The translations under genes and the position numbers were made by a program. Positions 11,903-62,220 of a DNA stretch of 64,000 nucleotides are shown one piece after another (positions within the stretch are counted from its first letter, which is position 1; each line of letters begins with the position of its first letter). The notes under the pieces are model-generated. The model was not told the DNA's origin. It searched no databases and was given only the letters and a program-made list of their open reading frames with translations. Source of the stretch: Octopus vulgaris (Eukaryota); assembly GCA_951406725.2 (NCBI GenBank), contig OX597826.1, positions 17,422,001 to 17,486,000 on the forward strand, in the 5' to 3' direction.

Positions 11903-12043
11903 TACGACGGGCTTCTTTCAGTTTCCGTCTACCAAATCCACTCACAAGGCTTTGGTCGGCCCGAGGCTATAATAGAAGACACTTGCCCAAGGTACCATAC
12001 AGTGGGACAGAACCCGGAACCATGTGGTTCGTAAGCAAGCTAC
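11903..12043 (-). mobile_element. SINE-A 5' half, cut inside the tRNA head by the adjacent insertion
   Basis: Matches SINE-A up to GTAGCTTGCTTACGAA, then abruptly joins another element's 3' end. Confidence 0.85.
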
Positions 12044-13886
12044 ATTATTTCAAAAATTTTACCATAAAGGCATGATACAGAGTAGCTTACGGGCTGAACT
12101 AAGACATTGATGAGGTGAATGATGATAAGGATCATATTAATGGGAGCAGACATAAAACGCCCGCCGATTTTCTGCTTCTCTAAAACATTATTCATTTCTT
12201 TTTTTCCACAGAAAAAGACAAAATGAGGTAATGAACCTCTTTTGGGACTAATAGCGTAATTAAGAATTGGGGAGTTAAGCCTATTAAACACAATAAACAT
12301 TAAACATTGTAACACTGAGGCTTGTTAACCTCTTGTCATTATTCCTCCCCGTCATCGCTTGTGCCTGTATACTCCACCATCCCCCACGCCTCATTCATGA
12401 CCAAGGCGGGATCCGAGCCGGCGTCGCCTGGCCACAAGCGATATTCCTCGTTGAGTTCCTGCAGCCTAAATCCAACAGACACCATTATGACCTCCACAGC
12501 TATCTTCGGAGGCCATTCGGGATCCTGTGTGAAGGTTAAAGGTACTCCCTTATGGTGCTTTTCCACCACCTTTTCTACCTCTCCGCCCCTGTAGAAGAAT
12601 ACCAATAGTTCCTCTTCCTCCGGGTTCGAAGTAGTTAATTTTACCGTTGGCGGCACAGTTCCTCCAACGGTGTCTCTTCCCTGACGGTGGCACAACTCCT
12701 ACCGGCAAGGTTCCGGGACATTCCGGTGCTATGTCACCGACTGCCGGCAATGTCCTGTTTCTCATCCTTTTCCTCTTTTTTTCATCTCAGCTGAAAGAGG
12801 GTGCGTCTCCTCCGTGACCGGGAGATTCACCTCCTCTCCCTCATCCCCAATATCCTTCGGCGAGCACCCGGGTGGCAAACTACAGACCCAGGCCCTCGTA
12901 AATTTTTTCCCACAATAAGTGGCAAGAAACAAAATTTCTTTACCCTCAACAAGCTGACTCGCAAAACTGCGAGTCTCCTCTGGGATGTCAAACAGCAACC
13001 ACACCTTTGCATGTTTGACTCCCCTAGAAATATACTTAATGGTTGCCAACTCCTGCTCAGTCATCTGCTTGGAGAAGACGGCAATGGTGTCGAGAACCTT
13101 CGAATACGTTCTCAACACCACCGTCCTCTCCTCTTGCTGTCTGAGCCACTCCTTAGGTAGGACAATCTCTCCCTCTACAATCTTATCCGTATTTTTTGTC
13201 ATGATTTAAATTAAAAATAATAAAAAAAGTCCAAAACAATACTTCACAAAAAAGGAAAGAGAGAATTCAAAAGAAAACAAAAGGGAAGAACAAAAAAAAC
13301 AAACACTTCAATAAAAAGTCACAATAGAAGAAGACAATAGTTAAAAAAAACAGCAAAAAACTCTTCTTGGCATTCAGGTACTCCAACCCCTTATGGTACT
13401 CCACTTAGAACCTGGACTGCTCCACTTGAATACAGCTTTCCAACGTAGTTCTAAAATACACACTATTTACAAGCAGCGAACGACTTTTGATGGCAGTAAA
13501 CGTCACCAAACTATATTTCTCACAATGGGAAAATTTTTTCATTTCATATGAACACTTGAAATACAGTTTTCCCGTAATAGTAAATGCTATTGTTGTAAAA
13601 ACATACACTGTTAAAAAGTGAACAATTTTTGGTTAAAGGATACGCCCACCAGACTGTACTTCTCACAATGAGAAAAAAATTTGCTGAACAGCAAGTAGAC
13701 CAACATCCTGAATCCAGTGAGGATTCCCTGTTTGTAAAACATATAGGCACAGACAACGACCCTCACTGGGTCCAAGAGAAAAGTCTTACCTTGCAGCAGC
13801 TTCTTTTTGGCAGGATAAACACTGCCGGCTATCTTCTTCAATGCACAACACAATGACGCATGCGTACACTGACAACAAAGACTCAT
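12044..13886 (-). mobile_element. ORF1-only (HAL1-like) non-autonomous Tx1-related element
   Basis: ORFs 12762-13202 and 12339-12695 share ERTVVL / YISRG / TYxG(K/R)(K/R) / (L/V)PP and LVxF..HH motifs with Tx1 ORF1 at 60603-62030; no ORF2 before the 3' end; 16-bp target duplication 12028-12043 / 13905-13920. Confidence 0.65.
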
Positions 13887-13920
13887 GGGAAGTATGCAGG
13901 CTACTTGGTAAGTAAGCTAC

Positions 13921-16900
13921 TTTATTGGGCGTTACATAGAGGGGACATACAAGGACAGACAAACATATAGGGTGAAGTAGCTTAAAAATATTTTTAAAAT
14001 TTACAATATAATGGGTAAAAATTTCAATGAAAGTTAACAAATTTAATGTTACATAGTAGGGCAAGGAAACCCGCCATCTGGATAGAACCTTTACTTCTTG
14101 ATCCGGCCATACTTACCTGGTGCCAAACATACCCAGCTTGCAAGTCATTGGCTTCCATCTTTTCACAAACATATCTCGTGACAGACACCTCTTCTCCAGC
14201 CTGATCTTACTACCGAGGTGGTAACTAAAAAAGTTAACCAACCCCTGACCGGAGACAAAGGTACCTGTCACTATACCTTTCGTATGCGTCTTCCATACTG
14301 TTTCTTTCAGTATGGCTACTTCACAGGAAAAACAAGCCTTTCTTTCCCTGCTGAGGAAAGGAGGCGGCACAATCTCGATGATAGACTCAGCTGATAGTTG
14401 TATTCTTCCATTCACTGACAACAGTTGTTCGGCAAAAGCAATCAGTCCCGATAACTCCGGGCACTCTACGAATGCGTGCAAGACGGTTTCCCTATCCCGC
14501 TCACATTGCGGGCATGTCGGCGAGACGGCACTTCCGTGCCTTGATAAGCTTGTCGCGAACAGGTAACGCCGCACGGAAACACTGCCAGGCCAGGGATTTC
14601 TGGTAATTATCCAGATACCTCGGCCCGAACGTTCTCCGGAACAGGCTGACCAACTAATTTTCATCGTAGCCCAGGGTCTCACCCAAGACGTATTCTGACA
14701 TAAATTCTACTAACCCGCTATAGAAATCCGCGGTGGAACTCCTGTTGCCGGTGTTGCCAACCCGAGAGAGAATAGCTGGAGCGCCTGACGGCACTCCAAA
14801 TACCAGTCCCCCAGTTTAGGTCTCCGCTTGATCCATGCACCGATGTCCGTTAAGGACGTTAACTGGGGAAGATAGAACCGAACGTGCGGTGACCACACCT
14901 GCTCTCCATCCAGGTAAAGCCAGAGGTGCCTCAACTTTAACGCGAGTTTTCGCATCTTAAGACAAGGCATCCCTAGCGGTTTCTGGCAACCGACAGATCG
15001 CTTTAAATGTTGCTTTCCTCCTTTCCACAAAAAGCGGAAAAGGATTCTCTCCAACTTTTTCATCCACAAATTGGGGCAAGGCACCACGATCAGACGGTAG
15101 GCGATTACTGATGCTATAAACATCTGCACCACCTCCGCCCTCCCTAGCAGGGATAGCGCCCGTCCAGACCAGGTCTGGGTGAGAGCGGTCACCCTGCTGG
15201 CCACCTCACTCCAATTTTTCTCTATCTGGAGGTCTGGACCAATCCAGACTCCGAGCAGCTTAACAGGACCTTCCGTCCAACGCCCCACGACGTATTTGGA
15301 CGACATCGGCTTGCCCCTCCAGGTGCCGAGTTGCAAACCGACCGACTTGTCCTTGTTAAATTTGCTCCTGCCACCGCCTCGTAGCCTTTAATGGCCTCTT
15401 CCACCACTGGGAGCTGGCCTTCATCCGCCACGATGATGGAGATGTCATCCGCGTACGCCGTAGCTCCTCTTCCACACCATAGATCATGAGGTGCGCCCCC
15501 TGGTGCCTCCAACTTCTGCATCAAAGGCTCAAGAGCTAACACACAGAAGCGGGACAGGGGACATCCCTGACGAACTGAACGCTCGATCCAGAACGGCTTC
15601 GAAAAGAAACCGTTCACCTTGACGACAGCCTTGATGTCGCTATACAAAGCAGCGATCCAACCTCGAAAGGTCGGGTCCAGGCCAGCCTCCCCGAGGACCG
15701 CTGGTCGACCCTATCAAATGTACCGACTGGTCTAAATGCACCAGTGCTCCCCCTGCAAATGCTTTAGACTCTCTAAAGTGTAACGTATAAGGTGGAGATT
15801 GTCGTGGATTGACCTGCCCGGGACAGCACGAGTTTGCGCCTCCCCGACAAGTTTGTCCACGACCCGCGCCAACCTTTTTGCCAACACCTTTGGCCAAAAT
15901 CTTTAACTCTGTGTTTAACAGAGTTATGGGCCTAAAGTTACCTATCTCGTCCCCCTTGCTCGGGTCCCTTGCTTTCTGATAAGCGCCACCACCACCCTCT
16001 CACAGACTTGGGAATTCTCCCATTCTGCTGCCAGTTGGCGTAGACGCTAGCTAACAGGTGCCCGAACAAGTCTGGCATACTTTTATAAAACTCATAGGGC
16101 AGACCATCGAGACCCGGCGATTGGCCCGTCACAGAACTCAGCCACTCGTGTCGAGAGACGCAGGCCACCAGACAGGAAGTCCCTAAGAGCCTCCCCATGG
16201 TCCAGCGTCCCGCACCTCCCGAACAACTCGGCGAAGTCCCTGTAAAGCGCCTCACACATTTCGTTCCTCTCCTTGACCGTGCATCCGTATTTGTCAACAA
16301 GAGACCTAATTGTGGCATCGTTTCCACGCTGGGTTTCCATCATACGGGCCCATCCGGTAACATTCATTCCCTCACGACCCAATGCTCGCACTTTAGCCCT
16401 AACTCTACACCCCTCATGTTTGGCTTTGAGGTGACAGTCTAATGACTTTCTCACCGCCAAAATGTGAGATGCAGAGTCCAACCTCAACGCCTCCACTAAG
16501 TTCTTAACTAGTTGTCCTTCTATTCTAGCCCTGTCTAGTCTTAGTTGTTTACTAAACCTAATGGACTCGAATTGAATGGCTCTTCTGAGAGTGAACCACC
16601 ACCGGTCATTAACCACGGCTCCGGTTAACGCCCTCTGCACTAACTCCTTAATCCCGCTACGGTATGCCTTACAAATCAAAATAGACTTGTTCAGCTTCCA
16701 GTAGCCGGGTCCTATCTAAAGTGTGCTACCTATGTCCAGTCTACACTTGACCATTCTATTGTCAGTGTAGGACACCTGGACAAGCTGTGAACAACTAAAA
16801 CTAGACTTATCTCTACTTCTTATCACTATCCTATCTAGATAAGATTTGAACCTTCCGTCGCCACTCATCCAGGTCCGCTCTGGGACGTTCGGATGGTCAA

Positions 16901-16930
16901 GTCTGTAACGATCTGCCAGCTGAAAACGCT
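13921..16930 (-). mobile_element. Tx1-clade LINE ORF2 (APE C-terminus, RT, C-terminal CCHC), frameshifted, 5' part lost
   Basis: SYLDRI..TDNRMV, SPGLDGLPYEFY, VRQGCPLS, AYADD, CPQC..ETVLHAFVEC; 3' UTR ends in AATAAA at 13921. Confidence 0.92.
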
Positions 16931-17285
16931 TGTATAACATATTATGCTTTACATATATAAAAATACCAGTAATTATTAAAATATATAACGTAGAACATAG
17001 AAAGTAGAATAGTTTCTTAGAGATAAATAATAACTTAGTGCAATAACTTGTACGGTCACTTTTGGTCTTTTGTCCCTTATTTGAATTTGGTCCGAATAAC
17101 TTCCAACGTACAATTTTAACCCTATATTACACATATGGTTTAGTAAATATACAAATGATTCTCCTAATTAGACAGATACATGTAATATTATATACTGTCT
17201 TTTTAATAAACTTGTAATAACTTATCTTTCATATGCAGTCTATTAAAACAATATCCCCTTAGTAATATTACTTTAACCTAAAATA

Positions 17286-17367
<82 letters not shown>

Positions 17368-17463
17368 ATCCAAACGAGAAAGCACAAAAAGAACACAACA
17401 ACGCGAGGACGCGGAACAAATATAGTATTATTGGACGCTCAGGAAAGAAGGAAAGAAGGAGGG

Positions 17464-17497
17464 GTTAACGTTTCGAGCGGAGCTCTTCGTCGGAAAC
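17464..17497 (-). ncRNA. Minimal hammerhead-like motif (CCGACGA variant) in a Penelope-type end fragment (17363-17580)
   Basis: GTTT-CCGACGA-A-GAGC TCC GCTC-GAAACGTTA-AC; palindromic AACGTT stem III; fragment bounded by (TA)n on both sides. Confidence 0.55.
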
Positions 17498-18082
17498 ATA
17501 GGAGAAGGAAAGATCCAGAGAAGGGAAGACAGAGGGGAAAAAATCGCCAACGGTACACACAAGGTCACATTTTGAAAAGCATATATATATATATATATAT
17601 AAATTCATAAATTCATTCACATTTTCTTATAGATTGCATAATTTAACATAACTTAACTTAGTTTAATGTTTAATATAATATAAAAGAGTCAAGTCCCTAT
17701 AGTAATTTCTTTATTGACTTTTACTATCCTAGCTACTAATAGTTAACCTTGGATTATTTGTTTTTTATTTGTATACATTTATATATTTTTGCCTACTTTG
17801 TTGTTTTTTGTTCTTAGTTATCCATTAACCAACCATAGCAAAATTATGTCCTTTCGAAACAATAGATGACCAATTAGATTACGGGACTGACCATAACCCC
17901 CTCCCCACTTCCCGCAGGATTTCAGCAACTCGATAAACAAAAGGTAACGGAAAATAAAGTATCTTGATTAATACCCGGAAATTTATTACTTTTAGTACCG
18001 ACTAATATCACAGGTATTAACATAAACTCTAACCCACTTATTGTGGACCTTTATCTCAAGCCCTCAATAGAAAACATATCGC

Positions 18083-18120
<38 letters not shown>

Positions 18121-18497
18121 TTGTGTATAATTATTATAATTATATAAATATTAAAATAATACTAAGTCTCTCTAAAGGAGATTACGGTAGCGTTACTGGG
18201 TATTAATAGTTATCGCCATACTAATATGGCAGTCTATAAATAAGACTAAAGCTGTCGCTGATTAGCTCCAATGGACGCAGGTTCGTGTGTCAAATAGCTA
18301 GCTAGAGGCGATGGCCTCTTTTGGAACTGCTAATCAGCGACAGCTTTAGTCTTATTTATAGACCGTCATATTAGTATGGCGATAACTATTAATATTATAT
18401 ATTATATATATATAAAAATACGAACTACTACAAGAATCCTCCAAGGCATTCTCAGCACATGAAATATGTATGTACCTATGGGTATGTTTGTACGTAA

Positions 18498-18544
<47 letters not shown>

Positions 18545-18647
18545 TGTGCTCCTCATTTATATACCTTTTCATTCCATTATTATTTCTTTCGATAATTTTC
18601 TCTTTCTTCTGTTTATACTTTATCTAATAAGAATAATACAATACACC

Positions 18648-18735
<88 letters not shown>
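18648..18735. repeat. (TAA)n microsatellite
   Basis: Direct reading. Confidence 0.97.
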
Positions 18736-18887
18736 TAATTCCTTTGTATACATATACATATATATACATATATAAATGTATAGATATGTTTTTATGTATA
18801 TTTATGCATATGTATGTGTATGTAAAAGTGTGTATATATAAAAGTGTGTATTTATATTTATAACTTAACATTATGAACTTTCTAAGC

Positions 18888-19009
18888 TCTCTGACGAACT
18901 CCAGAGGCACACCCAAGTACCTTGATCTTATCTACCAAATACTTCAGTTCACTGAAGGTACGGAAGTAAAGTGGGGCACTATAACCTCTTGGCTGAAACA
19001 GCTGTAAGA
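18888..19009 (+). ncRNA. Type I hammerhead motif with ~95-nt stem II region
   Basis: TCT-CTGACGA-..AGAGG...CCTCT..-GAAA-CAGCTG-TA-AGA; palindromic ACAGCTGT stem III. Confidence 0.6.
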
Positions 19010-21429
19010 AACTATTCTACTTTCTATGTTCTATATATTTTAATAATTACTGGTATTTTTATATATGTAAGGCATAATATGTTATACATGTATGTATAAT
19101 GTTATAATTGTTTTTTTAATAAATAAATATACATAATATCAAGTCTAAAAGTTGATGTATACCACCTCTTGTTCCCCTCCATTTTCTTATTGCCGTATAT
19201 ATATATATATATATATATCCTGAGTACGACTTTAAACTGTATCCGCTAATGGATCCTTTGTTCAGGAATGTCTGTTTATAGAGGAGTGTGGGACCAGCTC
19301 TTAGCCACTGTTGTTCCACGTCTACTCTGAACCAAAGCAGTAACACCTGTCAGGTTTCCAGGTATGAATTAACTAGCACATGTCCAATGTGGTCTCAATA
19401 AATTTTACTGTGAAACTGAAATACTCTAGCTGTTATATGAACTGCACGGGAATGCAGACATACACATGGTTGGTTTCAAGGCGTCCAGTAAAACCACAGG
19501 GAGTGAGCGGCCCCAAACTGTTGTATCAAGATCCTTCTAAGAAGGATGTAAAACATGCAGTTTCACAGGATTATTGGCCATCTCACCTCCACCTGTCCCC
19601 AGGTACTAATCACGAAGACTCAGAGAATGGTACTCGTGTTCTACAAGCATTTATCACTATAATCCAGTGACCTACAAATGTCTTTTTATCTTATTCGTCA
19701 TTCCATCAGCTGAAATTTCTATGGCAACGGAGCGCTTAGTAAGTTACAACTTTTGTCTGTCACCTATGCGTCAAACCTTGTAAATCTGCAACGCAACTGA
19801 TTAGTCACTTGAAAGGTCATGGGTGGAAGGTAGAAATATTATCGACAGCGAAGAAGTGCAACGAGACGGCAATCATCGGTGAAAGTGGAACATTCACCAT
19901 GTATTTATGTATATATGTATGTGTGTGCATGAATGTATGTATGTACGTACACACACATATAAAACATGTGTGTGTGTGTGTGTGTGAATGTATGTATATA
20001 CGTACATACACACACATATATATAACGTGTGTGTGTGCGTGCGTTTGTGTGTATCAAATGAAATTTCTGCAACCAAGATTCCAAAGACGATCACGAACTT
20101 AGTTGACAGGGAGTTCACCTTCATAATACGCCACATAATACATCACTCCACAAACATAAATAGAATATTGTGGATTAGATAAATACTTGTTTCGTTTTTG
20201 AGTGGTTTTTTACTATGAAAACAAGTACGTGAACTTCAGAAATAAAGTTATAGAACTTTATCATATTTTCGAATATGAAACTCAAACCTTAGGTAAACAA
20301 TAATAAGTGAGGACATTTAAGTTGCATTTTGAAAGTGTTTTGTCCTTTGAGACTAAGAATATGTCTCATAACTTTATAGCAGCTAATGTTATATGTCAGA
20401 TGATTAAATATATAAAAAGAGATTAATAATTGTTTGAAACACGACCGCCTGTTATACTTTGTTTAAAGACCTTTCACATCATAGATTATTCAAACGTATC
20501 AAAGCATTTTCCCTCGTGATGTTAGGCTCCACACAGTGCTTGCGCCTGTGGTCTCCAGAGAAATACCACAATGTCCTGTGGCAGCATGTAGTTGTTTAAC
20601 TTGAATCTGTATATCGCTGTTTAAAGTTTTGTTTAAGTATTCAATGACATACAATATTTCCCATTAGCGAACCGAAACACTAATTAATTAATTAATAAAA
20701 TGTAGTCATAACTGAATTAATATTGCTTTTACAGATAGCATTTCCTTATTTGTAACAGTATCATGACAAATTATAAGGTTAGTTTCATTTCCTTGTGGTT
20801 AGTCACCGAGAACAAAATGGTTGCTATGGTAAATATATTGATTTCCTTCACTAGGAGCAAGATACGATTTTTACAGAACATCGGACATTCAATAGATTTT
20901 TAGATTTATTTTATCAAAATAAAAATGATCAGAGATAAAACTGACGCTTCAGAATTTGGCTTCAAACAGGGCGTATGTGAAATAGATACATTAAAGCGAC
21001 CTCAGTTAGAAAAGTAACTTTTTTTGTCGCAATGGCTAAGTATTGTAGTCAAGAAAACTCAGCTGATAAGAAATTCAACCAGACGCAAATACCCACAGCC
21101 CAACCCAGTATTCTTGTACCTGTCCCATCCTCCAATTTATGATAGGGCTACGCATATAATCGAGTCATATTATTTAAAAGATGAATTTTAATAAATCTCT
21201 CAATCCTTAAACGGAAGCTCTGTTTAAAAGTTTCTATTTTACTGTATTTATTATTTTTTTTAATATTCAAAAACAGTGGATTAATCAATAACTGGCTAAA
21301 ATCTCCCATTGCATTTCAAGGTTGGAAAGAAACAAATGCTTCTTTGGTTTAATTGATTTATATATATTATATTTAATCGAGATATTTCCATTCATTATTG
21401 ATAATACACAACCAGCATAAATATGAACG

Positions 21430-21607
21430 AAAATAGCGGCATTTCGTCCCTCTTAGTTCTGAGTTCAAATGCGACCAAGGTTGACTTTACCTTTCATCCT
21501 TTTGGTGTCGATGAATTATGCACCGATTGGGCCCCGGGGTTAATGTAATCGACTAGCCCCGCTCATCCAAAATTTCAGGCCTTGTGCCTATAGTATAAAG
21601 GATTATT
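21430..21607 (+). mobile_element. SINE-B fragment (tail variant 1)
   Basis: GAGTTCAAAT B-box, central CCTTTCATCCTTT..GTCGAT domain, tail CAGGCCTTGTGCCTATAGTA. Confidence 0.8.
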
Positions 21608-21719
21608 GATTACATAATCCCATCTATTTGGCAAATAGGGCGTAAAATTCTTCAGGTTTCGAAACAAGAATATCATTTTTAACCTCTTCACAATTGATAA
21701 ATTGTTTTCCCTCTAAATA

Positions 21720-22038
21720 ATTCTTTCTGTTGTAAGCACAAGGCCTGGGAGAGGAGACCAGTCGATTACATCGAAACCAGTGATCCACTGATTATCGATC
21801 CCGAAAGGATGAAAGACAAAGTCGACCTCGGTGGAATTTGAACTCATCTTTATGCTGGTTGTGTATTATCAATAATGAATGGAAATATCTCGATTAAATA
21901 TTATATATAAATCAATTAAACCAAAGAAGCATTTGTTTCTTTCCGACCTTGAAATGCAATGGAAGATTTTAGCCTGTTATTGATTAATCCACTGTATTTC
22001 GTCCGGCGTACTAACGATTCTGCCAGCTCGCCGCCCCT
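21720..22038 (-). mobile_element. SINE-B copy interrupted by an inverted duplication of flanking DNA
   Basis: SINE-B match at 21720-21846 and 21996-22038; the intervening sequence is the reverse complement of 21273-21421. Confidence 0.8.
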
Positions 22039-22239
22039 TAAATAATGTTGCAATGACCTGAAAACAGGTCAGGAGAGTAAAGAAGATGATGCAAACTTTC
22101 ATATTTAGTACTATAATATTTTCGTGGGTGATTTAGGTAATATACTGTCTTGCGTTTTTGTACACAAGCAACACACCTTTAAGACTGGCCAATGATGAGC
22201 GCTTTTTCAGCAATTGTTTGCTCAATTCTTTTTCGTTTT

Positions 22240-22560
22240 GGTTTAAGACGTCATGATAGACGACAGCCTTCACATCTTTCCAAACACAGGGGATAAATTT
22301 TTCTCGGATGTAGTCCCGGTTTCAAGGTGCATTCTCCTTTTCGGTAACTGCTAACCATTTTCGTTTTTTAGTTGGATTATAAAGAATCCACTTTTCATCA
22401 TCTGTAGTGATTCTACTCAGAAAAGGCCAAAGATGAGCAGTGGGTAACTCTTTAATTAAGCTTCCCAGCTTAATTAAAGATGATGAGGGAACTACCGACT
22501 CAGTTTAGACACTTCTTGTAGTTCATAAAGTTGTTGCATGACTAAAGAGTGACTTGAACT
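22240..22560 (-). mobile_element. Mariner transposase fragment
   Basis: VSKLSR*FPHHL and ITTDDEKWIL motifs on the minus strand. Confidence 0.7.
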
Positions 22561-22580
22561 CTTTTGCTAATTCTCGTACG

Positions 22581-22716
22581 GTAGGCGTGACTGTGTGCTA
22601 AGAAGTTTGCTTCCTAACCACATGGTTTCGGGTTCTGTCCCACTACGTGGCACTTTGAACAATTCTGACCAAAATCTTGCGCGTAGATTTGATGTACAGA
22701 AACTGAAAGAAGACCG

Positions 22717-22797
<81 letters not shown>

Positions 22798-23020
22798 CGT
22801 GTGTGTGTGTGTCTGTATGTCTGTGTCTGTGTGTCTGTGTCTCTGTCTGTCTGTCTGTCTGTGTGCGTGTCTTTGTGACTGCGGTTGTTCCTCACCACCG
22901 CTTGACAACTGGTGCTGGTGTATTTACGACCCGTAACTTAGCAGTTCGGCAAAAGAAACCGATAGAATAAGTACCAGGCCTTGCAAAAAGTAATAAGTAC
23001 TAGGGTTTACTCGCTCGACT
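22581..23020 (+). mobile_element. SINE-A with internal (GT)n
   Basis: Similarity to 220-665. Confidence 0.85.
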
Positions 23021-23240
23021 CGCTCAAATCGAGGGAAATCTACATGAGAAAAATTTCCCGAACGAAACTGGTCTAATTATCATTGGCATGTCCAGATACT
23101 TTAAGCTACTTTTCCACAGAGGGAATGAATATTTCTGGCCGGTTCCATTGCTTGAACCGCCCGTCTTTAAATTCTTACAGTATACGGTGTTTGATATGGA
23201 TCTGATTTAAACAAAGAAACTAAAACGAAATTAGAATGTA

Positions 23241-24106
23241 CGAGATGGTATGAAAATGTTCCCGGACTAGTTTTGTAGCACACCAACAGATGCCAGCACT
23301 CAGCTGCTTGCATGGTGAGGGCTAGCAACGAACTACATGAAGCTATGTCCCAAGTAACATCGCTGGGTTTACTTTGCAAGTTATTTACTTTGCAAGTTGT
23401 TTACTTTGCATCATGTGTCTGTGTAGTCTGTGATTTTTGTTAAGGACAGGACATTGAAACAAAGAGCCAACAGGAAATTTTACGTTAAACTTGGAAAAAG
23501 TGAGCATACTTCGGCAATGCTTCGAGTGGTACAGGCGCTTCAAAAGGCACGACAGAGCCGCAAGCTCAGTTAAGAGCATGCACATCGCTTCTTTTCGACA
23601 TCCACGGTATTGTGCATCGAGATTTCGTCCTTCAAGACCAGACTGTCAATCGAGAATTCTACTGCGACGTTTTGAAGTATTTGAGGGAGGAGATTCGACG
23701 AAAGCAACCGGATCTGTGGAGCAACCGGATCTCACGACGACAATGCACCCTGAAACCGAGCTCTCCTCAGTTGTAAGTTTCTCCCCCAAAACAACATGGT
23801 ATCGCTTCCGCACCCTCTCTATTCAGCAGATTTAGCACCTGCGGACTTCCATCTCTTCCCCAAGAGGAAAATGCAGCTCAAAGGTTACCGTTTTAATACC
23901 GTAGTCGAGATCCAGGACGAATCGCGGAAGGTGATCGAATCGCTTATAGAAAAAAGACTTCCGGTCCGGATTCCAAAAGTGGCAGAAACGCTGGGACCGG
24001 TGTACTGATGCGCAAGGGGAGTATTTCAAAGGAGATGATGTTAAAACTTAGGTAAATATGTAATTTTTTATTAAACATAAATAGTCCGTGAGCCTTTTTA
24101 TACTAC
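23241..24106 (+). mobile_element. Mariner element, internally deleted
   Basis: TIR-like CGAGATGGTATGAAAATGTTCCCGGACTAG after TA; CFEWYRRFK, HDDNAP, PHPLYSADLAPADFHLFP. Confidence 0.88.
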
Positions 24107-24901
24107 TAAAGTCAATGTTTATTTTATCTTAAATAGTGAAAAAGTAACCTCAGAGTGTTCAAGTCAAAAATACGACAGCATTTTCTTTCTAGAGGGTTGC
24201 ATGAATATATTACATAGTTCATATTTATATCATACAAGCCTACTTATAAACATGCCTAGTATAAGGAGTAGTATTTCGATACTTCAGAGTTTGCTCATAC
24301 GCAGCCGTGTCACGTGTCAGACTGAAAAACAAATACCATGTTAAGTTCGCAAATCTGAATAAGTTCGTGTACCATCGAGAGGGATGAGTTTTAAATGTTT
24401 GGTCAAAGACATTCTTCGGAAAAATATGTAATTAAATGTTTTCGGTAGAACCGACAAAGAGAATAAAAGGGTACCATTTCAAATTCTGCCCAGAATGTTA
24501 GAATTACGACTCAGAAGATCAAGTGGCTCCTCGACCTGCTCGCAATAACAACCAAATCGCTCTAAAATCAAACCCCTACTGTATTATATGAAATGGGTAC
24601 TTTAGATAATGTAGTCCTAACAAACGCTTAACAAACGCTAGCATTTGATCATAGCTCTACTTGATCATACTTGACCTGGGACTAAACAACAATGACATTT
24701 GCGAACTTGCATTTTATTGGTTTTTTTGTGTTGTTTGTTTTGTTTTGTTTTTGTTTTCTTTTTTTTTTTGCTGATGTAGATTTCCATTGTTTATTTCGTA
24801 ATCAGGTTTTATAATTTTACTTGGGTGCAATCCATGTGAGAACCAGAAAAGGTTATGTGTAGAAATACATTTCATGACCAAAACAATAAGCAGCTGTACT
24901 A

Positions 24902-25088
24902 TGAAGGAGTGCGAAAAAGTTCCTGGTTTTCATGTTATCGTAAAATGCCTGGCTGGATGCCTGACCTTCCGAACTCTTTTATAAGTGTGTTGAAGCCGAG
25001 AGGGAAATATGTTGAATAGAATTGTAATTACATGATCGTCCAGTATTTTTCTTTTACCCAAAGTCAGGAACTTTTCAGCATCCCCTTG
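24902..25088 (+). mobile_element. Mariner-derived MITE
   Basis: Imperfect TIRs GAAAAAGTTCCTGG / TCAGGAACTTTTC flanked by TA; retains the transposase C-terminus KCVEAE..YVE*. Confidence 0.7.
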
Positions 25089-25641
25089 TATATATTCACA
25101 CTGTTTAACTGGTATTTAGTATATCTTATAATGAAGAGCAAATGAAATATATTAACTTTTTCCTAAAATGTCACCCGCATGTTATAATTAAGCAGTTAAA
25201 CAGATGATATTAATGTAATTTGATGTGTTATTTAGTGAGTCAATTGCTACTACTTCGGCATGTTATAATCACGATGCACTTCCGCTGAGAAATTTCAAAC
25301 CAAATCCCTCCGAACTTGCCCCAAATAGTTACAGATAAGATAAAAATAATGTCAGTAATTAACTAAAATTAATTTGCTATTACCAGTTTTTGTTACATGT
25401 ACAACTGTATATTTGAGAAGTTCATTTCGCAAGTGATTCATGCTTCCAACAGTCGGCAAGGCATCTTAGTCAAGTTTCGTTTACTATAACCAATAACTTA
25501 TGAGCGGAATTCGGTCAGTGGGAATTCCACAGAGGTAAGTCTATCTATGAGTCTTAGGCTGGCGTAAACCTACCTAAAAGCTATTGCTGTTTTTTTTTTT
25601 CTTTTTTATTTTGTGTTTTCTGAATATTCCATAATAGATAA

Positions 25642-25860
25642 GGTGGCGAGCTGGCAGAATCGTTAACATGCCGTATTAAAATGCTTAGCGGCATTTTATC
25701 TGTCTTCGTGTTCTGAGTTCAAATTTCGCCCAGGTCGACTTTGCCTTTCATTCTTTCGGGGTCGATAAAATGAGTACCAGTTGAGCACTGGGATCGATTT
25801 AGCCAACTTACCCTGCCCACCGAAATATCTGGCCTTCGAATCCCTAATACAGGGATCCAA
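25642..25860 (+). mobile_element. SINE-B
   Basis: Head GGTGGCGAGCTGGCAGAATCGTTA, B-box, central GCCTTTCATTCTTTCGGGGTCGATAAAATGAGTACC. Confidence 0.88.
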
Positions 25861-26099
25861 TAAACAGATGTCGATAAAATAAGGACCAAAAGAGAATGAG
25901 CATTGCTGTCCAAACGATAGATTATACTTCAAAGGCCGGGTCACAGAAGGGCCGTAGTTAAAGAGTGAAAGCAGCAAAAGAAGAAAAATATGTATGTCAT
26001 TATACTTTCCGTGCTTATTGTTATAATGACCAGTACACAGTAAAGACGGTCAATGTCGAATATAGCTCTCATTGGATGCTGTAAATAAAGGATCTTGTA

Positions 26100-26480
26100 A
26101 TGGGTCACTACCTTTACATTGTGCTCTTTTTACTGCAGTCAGCTACCATCCTTTACTGTAATTCAGAATGCTGTCAATTCTACAACAGAAATAACGCAGA
26201 TTCATTTCATAGCAATTTACAGAGACTTGAAGGGATTTTCCTACTTGAAACATAACTTGCTAGATCATCTCTAGCATAATGATAAAGTCCTCTCAATCTG
26301 CGAACTTCTTTTCTCTAGTTACTTGACCATTTTGATATTGAGTGTCATGTTATTATAAACATCCCACGTTGCCTGCATCTCTGGCACTTCATTATAGGCA
26401 GTCCAGTCGTTATTAGAAGACACAAAATTTTAAAAAAAGCTGGATGCTCTCAGAAAACTTTTCTTCATGGGTTTGCTTGA
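26100..26480 (-). mobile_element. Highly decayed RTE LINE 3' end
   Basis: Minus strand ends RMVADCSKKST, like RTE C-termini; weak. Confidence 0.35.
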
Positions 26481-28146
26481 TCTTGACTGACGTGGGGCAG
26501 AACAACAACTGTCTCAAAAAGAAATTTTAAAAAAAGACAATATTACTTGTTCTATCTTGAAAAAGCATTGTCGATTATATATTATTGGAATTATTTTATC
26601 GATTTCAGAAGTAAAACAACAGTTTCGAATGCGTCAAGATTTGAACCCAACATATATGCTGTAAAACATCTATTTTGATACCCAACTCTTTAGACCACCA
26701 CCAATTATTAACGACCTATAAGGCCAATGTGGTGTATAGTATTACTTCGAGAAGGAGTAGTATCATTGTAACCCAAACATGCTGCACACGTTGGTTAAAA
26801 TAATTTTACTACATAGAAGCACTGATCTCTTACAACTCCCAGTTATAGCTTCAACAAATTAGTATTGAACATTGGTAGCCATTCCACGGTTCTTCGATTC
26901 GGCTGGTGAGCTAAATTAAGCAGGATATATCAGAAGCCCCGAATGGATTATTGCATAGGGGATGGCAACAGAAGTATCTGTGTCAAATTAAAGATTAATG
27001 GTTCTGAATGCATGACAGTAAGATATGCGACACATCAATGACACTCTCTAGATGTAAATGGACAGTGAAAAAAGAACATACAATAAATAATGGGGGAATT
27101 AAATGTAAAGTTGCTCGCGTAAATAACGTTAATATAACAGGTCGAAATGGATTAGGTGGAAGAAATGAAAGAAATAATCAACCATTCGTTTTCTTTTCCA
27201 AGAAATATTTTAGCAATGACTAACACACTGCTCCAACAACCACCAAGAAAATTATTCACGTTGAAAAGTCCAAATGACATGATAGCAAATCGGGCAGACT
27301 ACATTCTGATAAACCAACGGCTTAGAAAGTGTGTGAAACTTGCAAAAAGATTCCTTATGGCAGATATATATTGAAACCATACTTCAATGGTAATTATATT
27401 ACAAATCAAATTTAAGAAAATGAAATAGCTAAAGGAAGAGAACAATTGAACTTAAATTTGCTAAAGTAGACAGAATACAAACAAAGCTAAAATATATCTG
27501 TAAAAATACGAAACAATTATGAATATTTTCACAATAAAAAAGAAATACAACAATAGAATAAACAAACCAATGGAAGGAGAAAATATAACATTTAAAGCTA
27601 ACGTGTAAACATTGTTAAAGAGAAAACTGGCCGAAAGGGGAAAAGAAAAAGAAGAAAAAGTGGATGGCTGGACAGATTCTATCGAAAATTAAAGAAAGAA
27701 ATACAATAATAAAGATCAAGACAGATAGAGCAGTTTAAGTGAAACAAAAAGTAAGGGAGACTAGAAAAGTATAAAAGCAAAGACCAGTTGAAAAAACAAC
27801 TTCAAAAGCAGCAGAAATTTTTTAATGAAATCACAAAATAGCAAATGTATGAGTAAACAAGGTGGTAGCATTAAGGATCGAATGGGGGAATCCTGGGATC
27901 GTGAATAGATTGCATCGAGATGGTGTCTTTATTCTTTTTCTCTTTTATCTTTTACTTGTTTCAACCATTAGACTACGGCCATGCTGGACACCGCCTTGAA
28001 GAACTTTTAGTCGAACGAATCAACCCCAGTACTGGCACATATCCTATCGATCTGTTTGGTCGAACGGCAATCACCGGTTGTCAAGCTGTGGGCGGAGGGG
28101 CACATACAGACACAAAGATGCACACACACACACACACACACACAAA

Positions 28147-28202
<56 letters not shown>

Positions 28203-28306
28203 CTAGATTCGCTCACAAAGCTTTAGTCGGCCCAAGATGTAGTAGAAGACACTTTCCCAAAGTCCCACTGAACCCGGAACCATGTGGTTAGGAAGCTAAC
28301 TTCTTA

Positions 28307-28719
28307 TTTCTTTACGGCCCACAAGGGGCTACACACAGAGGGGACAAACAAGGACAGACAAACGGATTAAGTCGATTACATCGACCCCAGTGCTCAACTG
28401 GTACTTAATTTATCGACCCCGAAAGGATGAAAGGCAAAGTCGACCTCGGCGGAATTTGAACTCAGAACGTAACGGCAGACGAAATACCTATTTCTTTACT
28501 ACCCACAAGGTGCTAAACACAGAGGGGACAAACAAGGACAGACAAAAGGATTAAGTCGATTACATCGACCCCAGTGCGCAACTGGTACTTAAGTTATCGA
28601 CCCCGAAAGGATGAAAGGCAAAGTTGACCTCGGCGAAATTTGAACTCAGAACGTAACAGCAGATGAAATACGGCTACGCATTTCGCCCGGCGTGCTAACG
28701 ATTCTGCCAGCTCCCCACC
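28307..28719 (-). mobile_element. SINE-B (Tx1-type tail), one full and one headless tandem copy
   Basis: Two near-identical units 28307-28487 and 28488-28719. Confidence 0.9.
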
Positions 28720-28730
28720 TTTTTTTTTTT

Positions 28731-28812
28731 CTCAGACAAAAAAATGGCTTCTAAAGACAAGTAATGTCTTCATATATCGATGAGACGGGGAAAGAATTTT
28801 GTAATCATCACT
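28731..28812 (-). ncRNA. SNORD12: C/D box snoRNA retrocopy, SNORD12-like
   Basis: Minus strand A-GTGATGA(C box)-TTACAAAA-TTCTTTCCCCG-T-CTCA(D')-TCGA..ATGAAGA(C')..GCCATTTTTTGT-CTGA(D)-GA then oligo(A). The guide is complementary to conserved 28S CGGGGAAAGAA, and both conserved blocks resemble vertebrate SNORD12 as I recall it. Confidence 0.8.
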
Positions 28813-31086
28813 GCTAACTTCTTACCACACAACCAGACCGCCTACGCCTCTACACAGCCACGCCTGAACTTATATTGGTAAAAAAAAGACTATTCCCAGT
28901 TTCAAAGCTGCTAACAACAAAAGCTTAAAATAAGGAGAAAAGGCAATAAACTCAGTGAAAGTTGAAAAGGCTATGAGAGTCGATGAAATATTAGTATTAA
29001 AAGCATCCTAGATCTAACGACAGGCTTATATAAAGTAATATATGAAAATACAAAGATCCAACCGAAATGAAACAACGTCTTTGTTCCAGAACTAATGAAT
29101 CTTAAAGATCAAACTGTGTGATGTGTCATGTAACTAAATTACCGATAAAAAAACCCATCCAACAACCAATTACATCAAGAATGAAGGAAGAAATAAATCA
29201 ACTAAAAAGTGAAGTCTGCTCTTTGAATGGAAACTCGTGAAGGAACGTTTAACCCAAAAGATATCTGTGAAAGAGTCCTAGACAAGTCAAGATTATAACA
29301 TATATTTTATAGACTCCGCCAAGACTTTTGACATGTAATGATGGTCCAGTGTCATCAGAACTCGAGATATGCGATGAAAAATTCCAAATAATAATGTACA
29401 GTAAGCAATAAGCGTAGTGAGAGCCGAACGATGGGGCGAAAATCTCAAAATTTGAAATTAATAAAAACATCAGGCTAGGCCGTGTACTATCTTCTGGCAT
29501 ATTTTAGCAATACACTGAAATCTTCAAAGAAATAGAAGATACAACGGGAGTATTTGCATGAAGTGTAGTCATTAACAACCTTAGATATGCAGATATTGCT
29601 ATATTAACTTCCAAAGATTACTTACCTAATCTTGTAACCACAAAGAAATGACAAAGGAGTGCCTGATGGAATTGAAGTAAATGTAAAGAAAATAATATCC
29701 ATATTGATACCCAAGAAACAAAAGCCATCTAAAATCAATGTTATAATTGATTGAAAACTAATTGAACTGACACCAAAAATGATATACCTGAGTTATATGT
29801 AGTCAGAAAACGGAAAATGTGAGGCAGACATCAAAAGAAAGATCCAGATGGTTAGGAAATGATTTGAAAATATGTCAAACATACTAACATCAAAAAGCAT
29901 TAAAATCGAAACCAGAAAAAAATATTATTGAGGTGTTATTTATAAACCAGGTACTAGAATAGATGGAACTGAAGTATGGACATTACCAAAATAGATTAAG
30001 AAGCCTTTCAGCTCTGGGCTTAAAGAAAACATTCGAGAACATCATTGACAGATCATAAAACCAATGGTGAAATACTAAGAATGGAAAAAAAAGACTAAGA
30101 AAATTTCATTAGATGCCATCAAAAAGAGAAAGCACATATTTCGGACACTTAATTAGAAAAAAATAGTTTACAGCGACTGTTCATAGAAGACAAAATATAA
30201 ATGGAAAAAGAGGGAAAGTAACATCAAACAGCAAATGTATAAGGACAGTAGAAAACCGAGATGGTGGTGGTGGTCGTGGTGAGGAGGAGGAGGATTTACA
30301 CTACCTAGTTCGGTAATGCGCTATCAGAAATCAGAAATCCTGCCAGATTTCTCCACCTGGTGTATTATTGGGTAGAATCCTTTAGAAATAGTGATTCTGT
30401 GTCTAATAAAAGGAAGCAACTAATCAGGTATGAAGCAAGCGCTGATCATTTCCACTTTCTGGTCAGAAGGCTTACCCTTTAAGCCATCTCTGAACATCCT
30501 GACTGGATTTTGATTTCTTTCCAACGAGAATATTAATTTATATTAAATCCTTGCTAAATAATTAAATCCTTGAGGAAATACAACTTGGGCAGCGTTTCGA
30601 ACCCAACATCTAAACTTGTTAACTACGGTTTCATATTCAATTTTGTCTTTGTTTAGCCTCTCTACGTCTGCCCCGACTGAGCAGGCTCATAATCAAAAGC
30701 ATTCCAGGTGTAGCCATCCTGTCTTTTTATATAACAAGATCTACATTCTCCAGTGTAGCCTTCTTTAACACAGTAACGTCTCATGTGAGGAAAGTGAGGT
30801 AATATTTATAATTAGCCAACCGGATGCGCTGAGTATTTCTTATAACACAAAATGCTATCTAATAATTCCATTGACGTCGAGACTAGAATGCAAATTAAAC
30901 CCAGTACTGTGTCCAGAAATTGGCCTCGTTGGAATCTGAACTCAGAACGTAAAAAAGAGGTAATTATATGCTGCAAGACCATCCCTCTATCTATACACTT
31001 TAAAATCTGATGCTAAATTTGCATCATATAATTATAGCAGACAGACAGACGGACAAATACATACATACATACATGGACAGATAGAC

Positions 31087-31225: not shown

Positions 31226-31458
31226 CCTATTTCTTTATTACCCACAAGGGGCTAAACATAGAGGGGACAAACAAGGACAGACATATGTATTAAGTCGATT
31301 ACATCGACCCCAGTGCGTTACTGGTACTTAATTTATCGATCTCGAAAGAATGAAAGGCAAAGTCGGCCTCGGCGGAATTTGAACTCAGAACGTAACGGCA
31401 GACGAAATACGGCTACGCATTTCGCCCGGCGTGCTAGCGATTCTGCCAGTTCGCCACC
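31226..31458 (-). mobile_element. SINE-B (Tx1-type tail) in a (TACA)n tract
   Basis: Near-identical to 28488-28719. Confidence 0.9.
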
Positions 31459-37936: not shown

Positions 37937-38025
<89 letters not shown>

Positions 38026-58829: not shown

Positions 58830-61800
58830 GACCCTATCAAATGCCTTACACTGGTCTAAATGCACCTGTACCCCCACCCTGCTCCAGAAAGTTTCCTAAC
58901 CGTCTCTAAGGAGTAGCGTATAAGGTGGAGATTATCGTGGATTTACCTGTCCGGGATAGTGCAAGTTTGCGCTTCCCCGACAACTCAGACCACGACCCGC
59001 GCCAACATTTTTGCCGGCACCTTGACCAAAATCTTTAACTCTGTTTTTTGCAGAGTTATGGGCCTAAAGTTCCCTATCTCATTCCCTTTGCTCGGGTCCT
59101 TTCTGATCAACGTCACCACCCCCGGCTCGCAGACTTGGGAATTCTTCCATTCTGTTGCCAGTTGGCGTAAACGCTGGCCAGTAGGTGCCCGGATAAGTCT
59201 GGCATACTTTTATAGAATTCATAGGGCAGACCATCGAGACCCGGCAACTTCTCCCTGGGGCAGTCGCCCAGCACCTCGATTACCTCCTCGGCTGTGATTG
59301 GTCCTTCACAGCACTCGGCCTCTCGTGCCGAGAGACGCGGGCCACCAGACAGGAAGTCCCTAAGGGACTCACCATGAGACAGCGTCCCGCCCCTCCCGAA
59401 CAACTCGGCAAAGTGCCTGTAAAGCGTCTCACACATCTCGTCCCGTCTTTCGACTGAACGTCCGTTTTCATCGACAAATGACCTAATCGTGGCAACGTTT
59501 CAACGCTGGGTTTCTACCGTGTGGGGCCATCCGGTAACATTAATTCCTTCACGACCCAATGCTCGCACTTTAGCCCGAACTCTACACCCCTCATGTTTGG
59601 CTTTGAGGGGACGGTCCAATGCCGTTCTCGCTACCAAAATGTGAAATGCAGAGCCCAACCTCAACGCCTTTTCTATGTCCTTGACTAGTTGCCCTTCTAT
59701 TCTGGCCTTATCTAGTCTTAGCTGTTGACTAAACCTAATGGACTCAAATCGCTCTCTTGAGGGCGAACCACCGGCGGTTATTAACCACAGCGCCAGTTAA
59801 CGCCCTCTGTACTAACTCCTTAATCCGGCTACGGTATGCTTCGCAAATCAAAATAGCTTCTTAAGCTTCCAATAGCCGGGTCCTCTCTTAACTGTACCAT
59901 CCATGTGCAGTCTACACTTAACCATTCTATGGTCAGTGTAGGCTACTTGGACAATCCGTGGACAGCTAAAACTAGTCTTATCTCTAGTTCTTATCACTAT
60001 CCTATCTAAGTAAGACTTGAGCTTTCCGTCGCCACTAATCTAGGTCCACTCTAGGACGTCTGGATAGTCAAGCCTGTAACGATCTGCCAGCTGAAAGCGC
60101 TTAAGCAGATCCACGAGACGTGAGTTCACTTTCCTACTGGTCGAGCCAATGCTATCTATGCGTGCGTCAACAATAGCTTTAAAGTCACGTAACACCACTA
60201 ATGTCTTCGGCGTCACGAGAAAGTTCTCCAGGCGCCGATAAAAATCAGTTTGGCATCCTCTAGCACAAGGTGCATAGAGTCCGATCAACCTGAAGGCTTT
60301 TCTGCTGTATGTCACATTAAGGACGACCAGCCCACCTTCTAGGTCCACATAAACTGTGCTTGTCTGCAGAGCAGAGCCTTTACGGATCAGTACCACTACA
60401 TCCACTCGTCCTCCGGTCTGGCCAGGAAACATGATTTTCTCATAGCTATTCAGGAGGGGCGAGAAAGTATGTAGACTGTCCAGCTTGGTCTCTGTAGCAA
60501 CCATCACATATATATCTTGTGATCTGAGGTCGTCGGGGAAACAAGTTTACTTCCACTTCGAACTCAGACCAGGCACATTCAGACAACCAAGGTTAAGTGC
60601 AGTCACAACTTGAAAAGTAGAGGTTCTACATACCCTTCATGGGCGACGATGGGGCTGACCTCACCACACGTGAGGCAGCCTTTTCCTTCTCCTCCTTCTC
60701 CAAATACTTCGGAAGGTTCCCAATTCTTCCGATGGCCGTCGGGTATCTTTCCTTCAAATGCTTGAATAGGGTTTCCCCTATCCAGACACACCTCCTTGGC
60801 GGTGTGGTGGTTCACAATTATTTCGTCCGTGTATTTGTCTCTGGTGTCAAATTCTACCAACACCTTAATGTCACAATCATCTTTTTCTTCTTTTTTTCCG
60901 GGGACAAGGGAGCGGTTTTATTTTTTTTGTAATTGGCTGTGTTCTCGTTTGTTTTTGTGGGGGAAATGGATGGTGACGGTGTATGAGTTCGTTTACGAAC
61001 TACTGCGTACTCCCCCTCGACCACCTCCATGGTGTCGTCCGAGAGAGCTGTACATTTTCCATCAGGTGCCAACAAGGGGTGGGTATTTTTACTTGTATCG
61101 AGGTTTGTGTGTGCAGGGATTGGGATTTTGTGGTGTTATGTTTAGGGGCCGGTACCGTAGTTGGGGGAGTGGGAAGTTTTACTTGTGTGGGGTCTGGTAT
61201 ATGCGTAGGTTTGGAGACTATTTTGGGATTTTCTGAAGGGCCTGGTGTCTACGCCATTTTTCCATCTTTTCCTTTTCTTTTTGTTTCCTTGTTTCGCAGT
61301 CCACGCGAATGTGACCCTTTTTCCCACATTCATAGCAGGTGGGTTTTCTTCCTTCCACCTCCATTCTAAGGGCCACATTCTTGCCCACGAGCACCCTTTC
61401 AGGAAGCTCCTGAAGGTTTTCCTGCGTACCCTGTACAATTGCTGTAATGCTCCGCCCGAGCCAATTCTGGGGGGCAGAGCATGTAATTTGCAAGAATTTT
61501 ATACGGTCCGTCCTGTTAAACAACAGGGCGGCCATCACCTCCTTCGTGTCAACTTCCGGTGGTACTTCTGTCACCTTCGCACCGAAATTCCGCCTTCCCA
61601 TGTATGTTGGTAGACGTACCACTTCCTTTGTCTTCAGGGGACACACGGAATGCCCGCGGGCCATCTCTTCACTAGAAAAACGGACCTCAACTGTACTGTA
61701 TGCCCGTCCCCTTGCAATATAGGCTACGTCTTTCCATATCGAGGACAGGCATTTTTCAATTTTCTCTTTCTCGAAGTGATTAAACTTTCTGTTTTGTGGG

Positions 61801-62220
61801 CAGAAGGATTTAAGCACTACGGTCCGTTTTTCTGTGTCGACCACACTGGAGGAGGGTGATATTTTAACGTCACCGTCCTCCTCTTTCATTCTTTTAAATA
61901 AACCTTCCTGCTGATCGACAGGAATGTCGGTATTTTCGACTGCCACCGCGGCTACCACCGAGAACTTTTTCACATTTTCTTGCTTACTCTCTACGAGAAT
62001 ACACCTCTCGTGTATAATTTCAACCAGCATTCTTCGGTTGAAATTAATTTCACAAGTAAATTACACAAATTACACAAATTAAATAGTTTCCCGCAAAAAT
62101 CGGAAATAAAAAAATTTCCTTGGGGCTGGCCAGATTGGAGACATTTCGAGTATAACCAGTCGAAATTGCAAAGATATTCTGGAACTCGACTGAGGATTGA
62201 AAACTCCAAATGCTCAGTCC
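58830..62220 (-). mobile_element. Tx1-clade LINE 5' part: UTR, ORF1 (CCHC gag knuckle), ORF2 APE and start of RT; 3' lost
   Basis: ORF1 VEGRKPTCYECGKKGHIRVDC; ORF2 CLNVPGL, ATETKL, LIGLYAP, LRDFKA, SYLDRI, PGLDGLPYEFY; aligns with 15700-16930. Confidence 0.93.

Follow-up and report, generated by a model that had tools for sequence, protein, structure and literature searches.

The window analysed here is a 64,000-nucleotide (nt) stretch of the Octopus vulgaris genome (GenBank assembly GCA_951406725.2, contig OX597826.1, forward-strand positions 17,422,001 to 17,486,000), which holds members of a retrotransposon system joined to the tRNA-like head of a short interspersed element (SINE) that we call SINE-A. 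An earlier note on this DNA proposed that a Tx1 long interspersed element (LINE) and its partners insert site-specifically into that head, an interpretation that the genome-wide analysis reported here partly supports. The elements concerned are the LINE itself, with two open reading frames (ORF1 and ORF2), non-autonomous elements encoding ORF1 only, and, in rare instances, a second SINE (SINE-B). In the window, a LINE and an ORF1-only element form a stack next to the 3′ part of a split SINE-A, with the following features (UTR, untranslated region).

11906..12043, minus strand: 3′ part of a split SINE-A head and body with a type-1 head, starting at the target GTAGCTTGCTTAC (89% identity to the window's SINE-A copy 212-375 from position 27 onward)
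12044/12043, minus strand: 3′ junction of the ORF1-only element, ..GAAATAAT joined to GTAGCTTGCTTACG (from the sequence)
12044..13906, minus strand: ORF1-only non-autonomous element, this copy with an internal deletion of about 400 bp (82% identity to copy L287)
12060..12071, minus strand: small predicted hairpin GCC-TTTAT-GG(C/T) in the 3′ tail, common to LINE and ORF1-only elements (most junction sequences; folding)
12081..12090, minus strand: 3′-UTR motif GYAAGCTACT of the ORF1-only element, antisense to the downstream target (sequence, covariation table, folding)
13894..13906, minus strand: target copy captured by the ORF1-only element as part of its 5′ end (L262, L272, L274, L287 and L296 carry it at that end too)
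13907..13922, minus strand: 16-bp target duplication that separates the stacked elements, its first AA assignable to element or target (from the sequence)
13921/13920, minus strand: 3′ junction of the LINE, ..CAATAAA joined to GTAGCTTACTTACC (from the sequence)
13921..16931, minus strand: L1-group (Tx1-like) LINE, 5′ part lost and ORF2 broken (86-88% identity to full-length copies L072 and L331; RVT_1 and zf-RVT fragments)
13975..13983, minus strand: LINE 3′-UTR motif AAGCTACTT, antisense to the target AAGTAGCTT (sequence, covariation, folding)

The three 3′ junctions described in the earlier note were found where it had placed them, all co-oriented with the SINE-A head, as were the head-to-tail stack with its duplicated target (copy at 13907-13922) and a chimera of SINE-B and a small nucleolar RNA (snoRNA) flanked by a 12-bp duplication (copies at 28295-28306 and 28813-28824). 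The segment at 13894-13906 had been taken for a degenerate extra copy of the target between the stacked elements. It is instead the 5′ end of the ORF1-only element: the same sequence recurs at this end in 5 of 39 extended ORF1-only loci, and it is therefore a target captured inside the element, which measures about 2.3 kb when whole. The split SINE-A resumes at head position 18-20. The window LINE carries a deletion of about 20 nt near its 3′ end and terminates in AATAAA without poly(A); because it is broken at 16931, the SINE 5′ head of this stack is missing.

Genome-wide insertion into the SINE-A head

Throughout the genome the insertion site reads GTGGT^AAGTAGC, directly 3′ of the A box of the tRNA-like head, with element and SINE co-oriented. 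To sample young LINE copies blind to their flanks, we took the top-ranked of 150 scored matches from a protein search with an ORF2 fragment alone. This search revealed a young subfamily with open ORF2 frames of 1150 amino acids, whose copies have a median identity of 98.9% to one copy and whose intact two-ORF members are about 99% alike. All 29 of the 3′ ends chosen by ORF2 score alone were on target, and so were all 46 young copies with both flanks read, 26 of which overlap with the 29. Upstream of these 46 copies lay the SINE 5′ head in 40 cases and another element of the system in six; a further element followed downstream in three.

Older copies gave a similar picture. A DNA search with the last 280 nt of the LINE yielded 40 scored matches of 462 candidates, from which 29 loci outside the window were retrieved; 28 of these retained an intact end, and 24 of the 28 ran into the target. 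An exact pattern of the 21-nt LINE end found 34 copies, 30 of which were retrieved. Once the two end searches were combined and duplicates removed, 37 of the 42 older LINE ends proved to be on target and five off target. The 5′ junction of the 37 led to a SINE 5′ head or a stacked element in about 30 cases, lay beyond the locus or ran into a gap in three, and showed neither in four. An additional junction pattern barred C at position 14 and was one base too long in its spacing, so that its 17 matches are biased against the target and serve as extra loci only. Among ORF1-only elements (1170 candidates at first look), 26 of 29 ends were on target.

These proportions can be set against the abundance of the target. 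Exact pattern searches, both of which omit the TAACC variant, counted 373 AATAAA-target junctions (67 GTAG and 33 GAAG among the first 100) and 30,896 intact SINE-A heads (type 1 to type 2, 74:26 among 100 of them), so that about 1.2% of exact heads are occupied. One fixed base and strand in 30,896 to 200,000 heads, the latter an assumed upper bound, amounts to 6e-6 to 4e-5 of all sites, and chance is therefore no explanation for the junctions. That the LINE family targets the SINE-A head site-specifically is, in our judgement, virtually certain. Indeed, where the earlier note allowed at most a preference, insertion is near-obligate for the LINE and the ORF1-only elements (46/46, 37/42 and 26/29), and the claim that it splits the A and B boxes of SINE-A is strongly supported for both. 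The junction at 62220, cited as a counter-example, is unusable: beyond 62064 (element position about 357) that fragment has no homology to full-length copies, and at 58830 its 3′ end is broken.

Target duplications ranged from 0 to 16 bp across insertions. Four off-target insertions with a visible duplication (L102, L110, L259 and L273) had only AAGTA(G) in common downstream of the nick. Symmetric nicking of a quasi-palindromic target, which would yield a fixed 13-bp duplication, was considered and rejected, as off-target sites without the palindrome also duplicate up to 12-16 bp and truncated copies range from a deletion at the target to a duplication of 16 bp. Four LINE copies (L063, L065, L066 and L070) that have lost internal sequence but retain ORF1, the 5′ end and the final third of ORF2 are also on target.

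It could be argued that the element itself includes the SINE halves, carried along by transduction or hitch-hiking, or that the loci are segmental duplicates; the target letters at the element's 5′ end, about 6-8 in number, would agree with this. However, 5′-truncated copies, from 30 bp to several kb, meet the SINE head at many different points, and LINE copies about 99% alike sit in different SINE subtypes with unrelated outer flanks. This explanation is largely refuted, and we give it almost no credence.

The 1133-amino-acid natural ORF2 of the LINE matches Exo_endo_phos (5e-12), RVT_1 (1e-27) and zf-RVT (1e-8); the catalytic motifs of its endonuclease align to L1-EN, and ORF1, of 488 amino acids, has a CCHC knuckle (zf-CCHC, 2e-5). 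Among solved proteins, human L1 ORF2p is closest (E=4e-67), with R2 at about 1e-19. Judged by these predicted domains, the LINE is an L1-group (Tx1-like) non-long-terminal-repeat retrotransposon. The earlier identification thus holds for the L1 group of ORF2, and the Tx1 label itself is one that we presume from family traits. Among the 120 homologs listed the only named close one comes from Argonauta (65%), and a labelled Tx1 reference was absent from these 120 and from eight clusters. In tblastn comparisons ORF1 similarity was present in 6 of 9 ORF1-only copies and ORF2 similarity in 0 of 9, and these elements have the 3′ hairpin and GAAATAAA tail in common with the autonomous LINE. With ORF1 homology, no ORF2 and a common tail, they qualify as HAL1-like ORF1-only retroposons.

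SINE-A, for its part, appears from its sequence to be a tRNA-derived SINE. Its head is colinear with genomic tRNA-Ala(TGC) (z=6.6 against shuffles) and has A and B boxes, with the insertion falling in a D-loop-like GGT just after the A box; ARAGORN calls the head only at a lowered threshold, and Rfam gave no tRNA match for SINE-A. This resemblance raises the question of whether the element evolved to target genuine tRNA genes, or some other gene present in many copies, and hits the SINE as a bystander. The position of the site in the tRNA-like head would suit such an account, as would the Dada transposons, which target tRNA A boxes (PMC3706591, PMC8869645). However, all 46 young copies lie in SINE-A or in stacks on SINE-A and none in a tRNA gene, and GGTAAG[AT]AG occurred in 0 of 27 distinct tRNA sequences, a sample of only about six isotypes. 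We regard a bystander role as very improbable. Dispersed tRNA-Lys(TTT)-like copies were also seen in large number, with variant T-loops (L394-L417); in one of them (L397) a Lys body bears a TTC anticodon.

An antisense motif, SINE subtypes and the choice of target

Many copies of both the LINE and the ORF1-only elements carry, 45-80 nt before the 3′ end, a 9-10 nt 3′-UTR motif that is the reverse complement of target positions 1-10. We scored motif and target at 123 of 133 junctions, the remainder being a single artefact, elements of very short length and flanks that could not be classified. Type-1 flanks were accompanied by AGCTAC in 71 cases, AGCTTC in one and neither in 17; for type-2 flanks the corresponding counts were 4, 12 and 18. 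An antisense match of at least 8 nt was found at 54% of the 123 junctions as compared to 0.3% of shuffles, and adding 14 nt of flank closed a stem in 5 of 7 folded examples. UTR trees of 58 and 39 rows, built with the motif removed and weak in their backbones, place the combination of AGCTTC and a type-2 target in about 4-5 distinct groups, which span both LINE and ORF1-only elements.

The target also appears at the other end of the element. The 5′ junction ends in ..TAACC in 42 of 42 full-length young copies, including nine that have a TTA variant as 3′ flank, and the element 5′ end therefore carries target letters of its own, about 6-8 of them. An extra T was present in 7 of the 9 TTA-variant copies versus 7 of 32 matched targets. 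An A at position 13, found in 4 of 16 non-1b targets versus 1 of 43 in the background (p=0.017), would bear indirectly on read-through priming. CTTCCGG or GCGCATGCG, which we take to resemble Ets and NRF-1 motifs, often stands at element 5′ ends adjoining the duplicated target (L176, L181, L187, L210, L190 and L368); where the head is of type 2, the first of these is completed by CTTCC from the target.

Taken together, the antisense motif and the target-derived 5′ end would point to pairing of a read-through RNA with the target. Our preferred reading, which we hold with moderate confidence, combines an endonuclease nick with a read-through RNA stem whose UTR motif is exchanged for the DNA primer, the target-derived 5′ letters aiding the second junction. 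In such a scheme the APE domain would nick the bottom strand at about CTACTT^ACC, and the transcript would run past AATAAA into the target. The read-through would first pair with the UTR motif as a stem; the motif's place would then be taken by the nicked DNA primer, identical to it in sequence. The top strand would be cut 9-16 nt downstream, with the target-derived 5′ end helping the complementary DNA to join. Every insertion would regenerate a target, so that elements could stack, and the abundant SINE may represent a low-cost target, a possible safe harbour in the terms of the earlier note. Whether pairing between RNA and target plays a real part is a closer call, which we lean only slightly towards affirming.

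A more far-reaching proposal is that target choice is RNA-programmed, such that a one-base RNA change retargets the LINE from one SINE subfamily to its successor with the protein unchanged. The stem of motif and read-through would then swap strands with the nicked target, the read-through pairing with the primer strand and the freed motif with the displaced top strand, and the family would have followed SINE turnover from type 2 to type 1 to 1b. We put this forward tentatively and think it rather unlikely.

Several observations weigh against the reading that we prefer. The Fisher p of 1e-10 for motif-target covariation counts related copies and includes type-2 loci that were purposely retrieved, and the UTR trees, as noted, have weak backbones. 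The motif is dispensable, since neither form is present at 18 of 34 type-2 and 17 of 89 type-1 junctions, including a whole ORF1-only group. Mismatched pairs also occur, with the type-1 motif at a GAAG flank in L186, L193, L202 and L086 and the type-2 motif in a type-1 head in L004. Type-2 heads are older (body divergence 17.6% versus 3-8%), and age matching could therefore yield part of the motif-target pattern. At young targets the upstream side (-13 to -1) is conserved as well (0.3-2.6% versus about 5%), which fits protein reading of the DNA; and as an L1-type endonuclease also reads the primer side, the off-target pattern cannot separate protein from RNA. SINE-B, moreover, may be served by a different LINE. 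In contigs from four putative RNA runs, which cannot show RNA ends, no transcript end was seen, and one contig spans the junction with fewer than 31 letters on one side.

Much of this would be expected if the endonuclease alone set the target. Under that explanation the APE domain reads from about -13 to +13, and the motif is either an RNA structure element, for 3′-end processing or reverse transcriptase binding, or a relic in age-matched subtypes. Conservation on both sides of the nick, the arrival of motif-less copies at the site and the greater age of type 2 all agree with it. So do a sister family with a different endonuclease loop that targets (TC)n, and the published view that the endonuclease is the main determinant of target choice (PMC4494074). 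By itself, however, it leaves unexplained both the complementary T/A switch at one paired position in several LINE and ORF1-only groups and the target-derived 5′ end, and we consider it possible but doubtful.

The SINE subtypes themselves are unevenly used. The young family was found in type-1 heads in 46 of 46 cases, as compared to 26 type-2 heads among 100 exact intact heads (p=2e-6). Within this, young copies prefer the youngest SINE subtype (25/43 versus 23/113, p=1e-5; the background of 113 being 156 SINE heads minus the 43 junction copies), and the bodies of targeted SINEs have diverged about 40% less than the background of the same class. Both tendencies would follow if a host factor tethered the particle to young SINEs bound by RNA polymerase III, as TRE5-A is drawn to TFIIIB/C, and the cut fell on an exposed base next to the A box. 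However, single-base precision, AAGTA(G) off-target sites outside any SINE, stacks in which the A and B boxes lie kilobases apart, and the absence of family-type junctions (0 cases) from the 1.5-kb surroundings of 30 tRNA loci all speak against tethering, which we judge improbable.

SINE-B, snoRNA chimeras and a (TC)n-targeting sister family

The third junction of the window belongs to SINE-B, at a locus with the following features.

28213..28306, minus strand: type-2 SINE-A head (AAGAAG variant), 3′ part, with the 3′ copy of the 12-bp duplication (28295-28306)
28305..28706, minus strand: SINE-B dimer with a tail resembling these LINEs (92% identity to 31226-31445; tail matches the LINE 3′ UTR over 28-31 nt)
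28707..28812, minus strand: retrocopy of a C/D-box snoRNA (SNORD12/snR107-like) that carries poly(A) and is joined to the 5′ end of SINE-B (below-gathering Rfam matches)
28813..28860, minus strand: SINE-A 5′ head with the 5′ copy of the 12-bp duplication (28813-28824)

At least 102,775 SINE-B tails are present genome-wide, of which 361 (about 0.35%) join the SINE-A site, at the same base as the LINE. The target-specific system of the earlier note stands for the LINE and the ORF1-only elements, whose 3′ flanks are concentrated at the target, and does not extend to SINE-B, for which the SINE-A site is a small hotspot that is rarely used. Of the first 100 such junctions, 94 are in type-2 heads; the SINE-B tail reads AAGAA, and 0 junctions were found at an internal AAGAA control site of the same SINE, a control with one base less of microhomology and a CpG. 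We thus rejected SINE-B as a dedicated target-specific partner of the SINEU-3 kind, with more than 20% of copies at the target. Several SINE-B insertions, read by eye, have duplications of about 12-17 bp and short read-through letters at the 3′ junction, and variable read-through letters follow the tail at other junctions too. In a large proportion of cases the SINE-B tail runs into internal SINE-B sequence, at position ~50 in 184-bp units and less often at ~16 (L111-L140).

The snoRNA part of the chimera matches Rfam snR107 (E=0.004) and SNORD12 (E=0.07), both below the gathering score. It has 13 genomic matches, 12 of them retrieved (L418-L429), four of which lie in a putative source cluster on C9 (62.08 Mb). 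Chimeras of snoRNA, poly(A) and SINE-B were found at five loci at least, two of them in type-2 SINE-A heads, and this recurrence suggests repeated template switching.

A sister LINE family, with 69-70% amino-acid identity in the searched fragment, is likewise young and has open ORF2 frames of 1138 amino acids (L334-L347, e.g. G000:C29:28018700-28026700). At least seven of 20 retrieved copies lie in (TC)n, and the two families differ in their endonuclease loop (TWMSGDGRFKS in the sister family, TWARNDGSSRS in the SINE-targeting one). The sister family ends in AATAAAGAAATA, like SINE-B, whose tail end fits it as well as it fits the SINE-targeting LINE.

Elsewhere in the window, a second fragment of the SINE-targeting LINE's group has lost both ends and is uninformative on targeting.

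58830..62064, minus strand: LINE fragment (78-83% identity to full-length copies; zf-CCHC in ORF1)

Long inverted repeats at 49436-50086 (287 nt, 100%), 38005-40635 (271 nt, 90%) and 36096-36672 (215 nt, 95%) are probably young miniature inverted-repeat transposable elements or DNA transposons. From their translations, we take the segments at 23458-24070, 34461-35013, 56134-57017 and 36824-37168 to be decayed Mariner/Tc1-like transposase fragments. The hammerhead ribozyme HH9 has a weak match at 6200-6272 on the minus strand (28 bits, E=0.007, below the gathering score).

Relation to known site-specific elements

LINEs of the Tx1 clade are often target-specific. Families that target other transposons, with non-autonomous partners, include Tx1L in Tx1D of Xenopus and the crocodilian Tx1-Mar, Tx1-8_Crp, Tx1-4_AMi and Tx1-9_AMi with SINEU (PMC4494074). 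Like these, the octopus LINE is an APE-type L1-group element with a preferred site inside an abundant mobile element and non-autonomous partners at the same site, and in both cases related lineages target (TC)n or (TTC)n. By the target-preference criterion of Kojima 2015, more than 20% of flanks (PMC4494074), the LINE and the ORF1-only elements rank as target-specific and SINE-B does not. Unlike the known cases, the octopus target is a tRNA-like SINE head and the partners include ORF1-only elements; precision is to the single base and near 100%, where SINEU-3 reaches 90%, and the available text of that paper does not mention an antisense UTR motif (PMC4494074).

Other sequence-specific Tx1 families, namely Kibi/Koshi, Keno, Dewa and Mutsu, include one, Kibi, that targets (TC)n as the octopus sister family does, but their targets are microsatellites, U2, tRNA-array spacers and 5S, with no SINE promoter among them (PMC4494074, PMC3706591). 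Dada elements also use fixed sites in the A-box region of tRNA genes, but they are DDE DNA transposons in real tRNA genes with 6-7 bp duplications, and the word SINE is absent from the main text of both papers (PMC3706591, PMC8869645). HAL1 (half-L1) resembles the ORF1-only elements as a non-autonomous derivative encoding ORF1 only; it is mammalian and L1-derived, with no target specificity described in the text available (PMC5753468).

For the proposed mechanism the closest parallels are R1Bm, SART1Bm and Drosophila R1, which are APE-type, site-specific and produce duplications of about 14 bp (PMC7265360, PMC2718515). R1Bm RNA needs downstream target sequence (PMC7265360, citing Anzai 2005), and some Drosophila R1 elements carry the target at the 5′ end (PMC2718515). 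Target-bearing RNA anneals there in first- or second-strand priming, as is proposed, and only proposed, for the octopus LINE. These elements differ in belonging to the R1 clade and in targeting ribosomal DNA or telomeres (PMC7265360, PMC2718515). SART1 UTR motifs, furthermore, are sense to the target and pair with the primer, whereas the octopus motif is antisense to its target and changes together with the target variant. Previous work has dealt with the endonuclease loop and its role (PMC1950540), and octopus SINEs or L1-Tx1 are mentioned without a target in PMC8967140, PMC4758252 and PMC3747384.

Tx1 elements that target other transposons were thus already known. A SINE-head target, and an antisense UTR motif that covaries with it, were not found in the literature searched; Repbase Reports and supplements, which lay beyond its scope, may already record the target.

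The octopus system reverses the usual relation between SINE and LINE, in that a LINE uses the promoter region of a SINE as its near-exclusive landing site. With intact, recently active copies and a 69%-identical sister that has another target, the respective shares of the endonuclease and of RNA-DNA pairing become testable, and the (TC)n family offers a natural partner for endonuclease swaps. The question made accessible in this way is what each contributes to site specificity and second-strand joining in APE-type retrotransposons. If it is true that RNA steers the choice of SINE subtype, this would bear on tools for site-specific gene insertion and on how target-specific elements keep pace with an evolving target.

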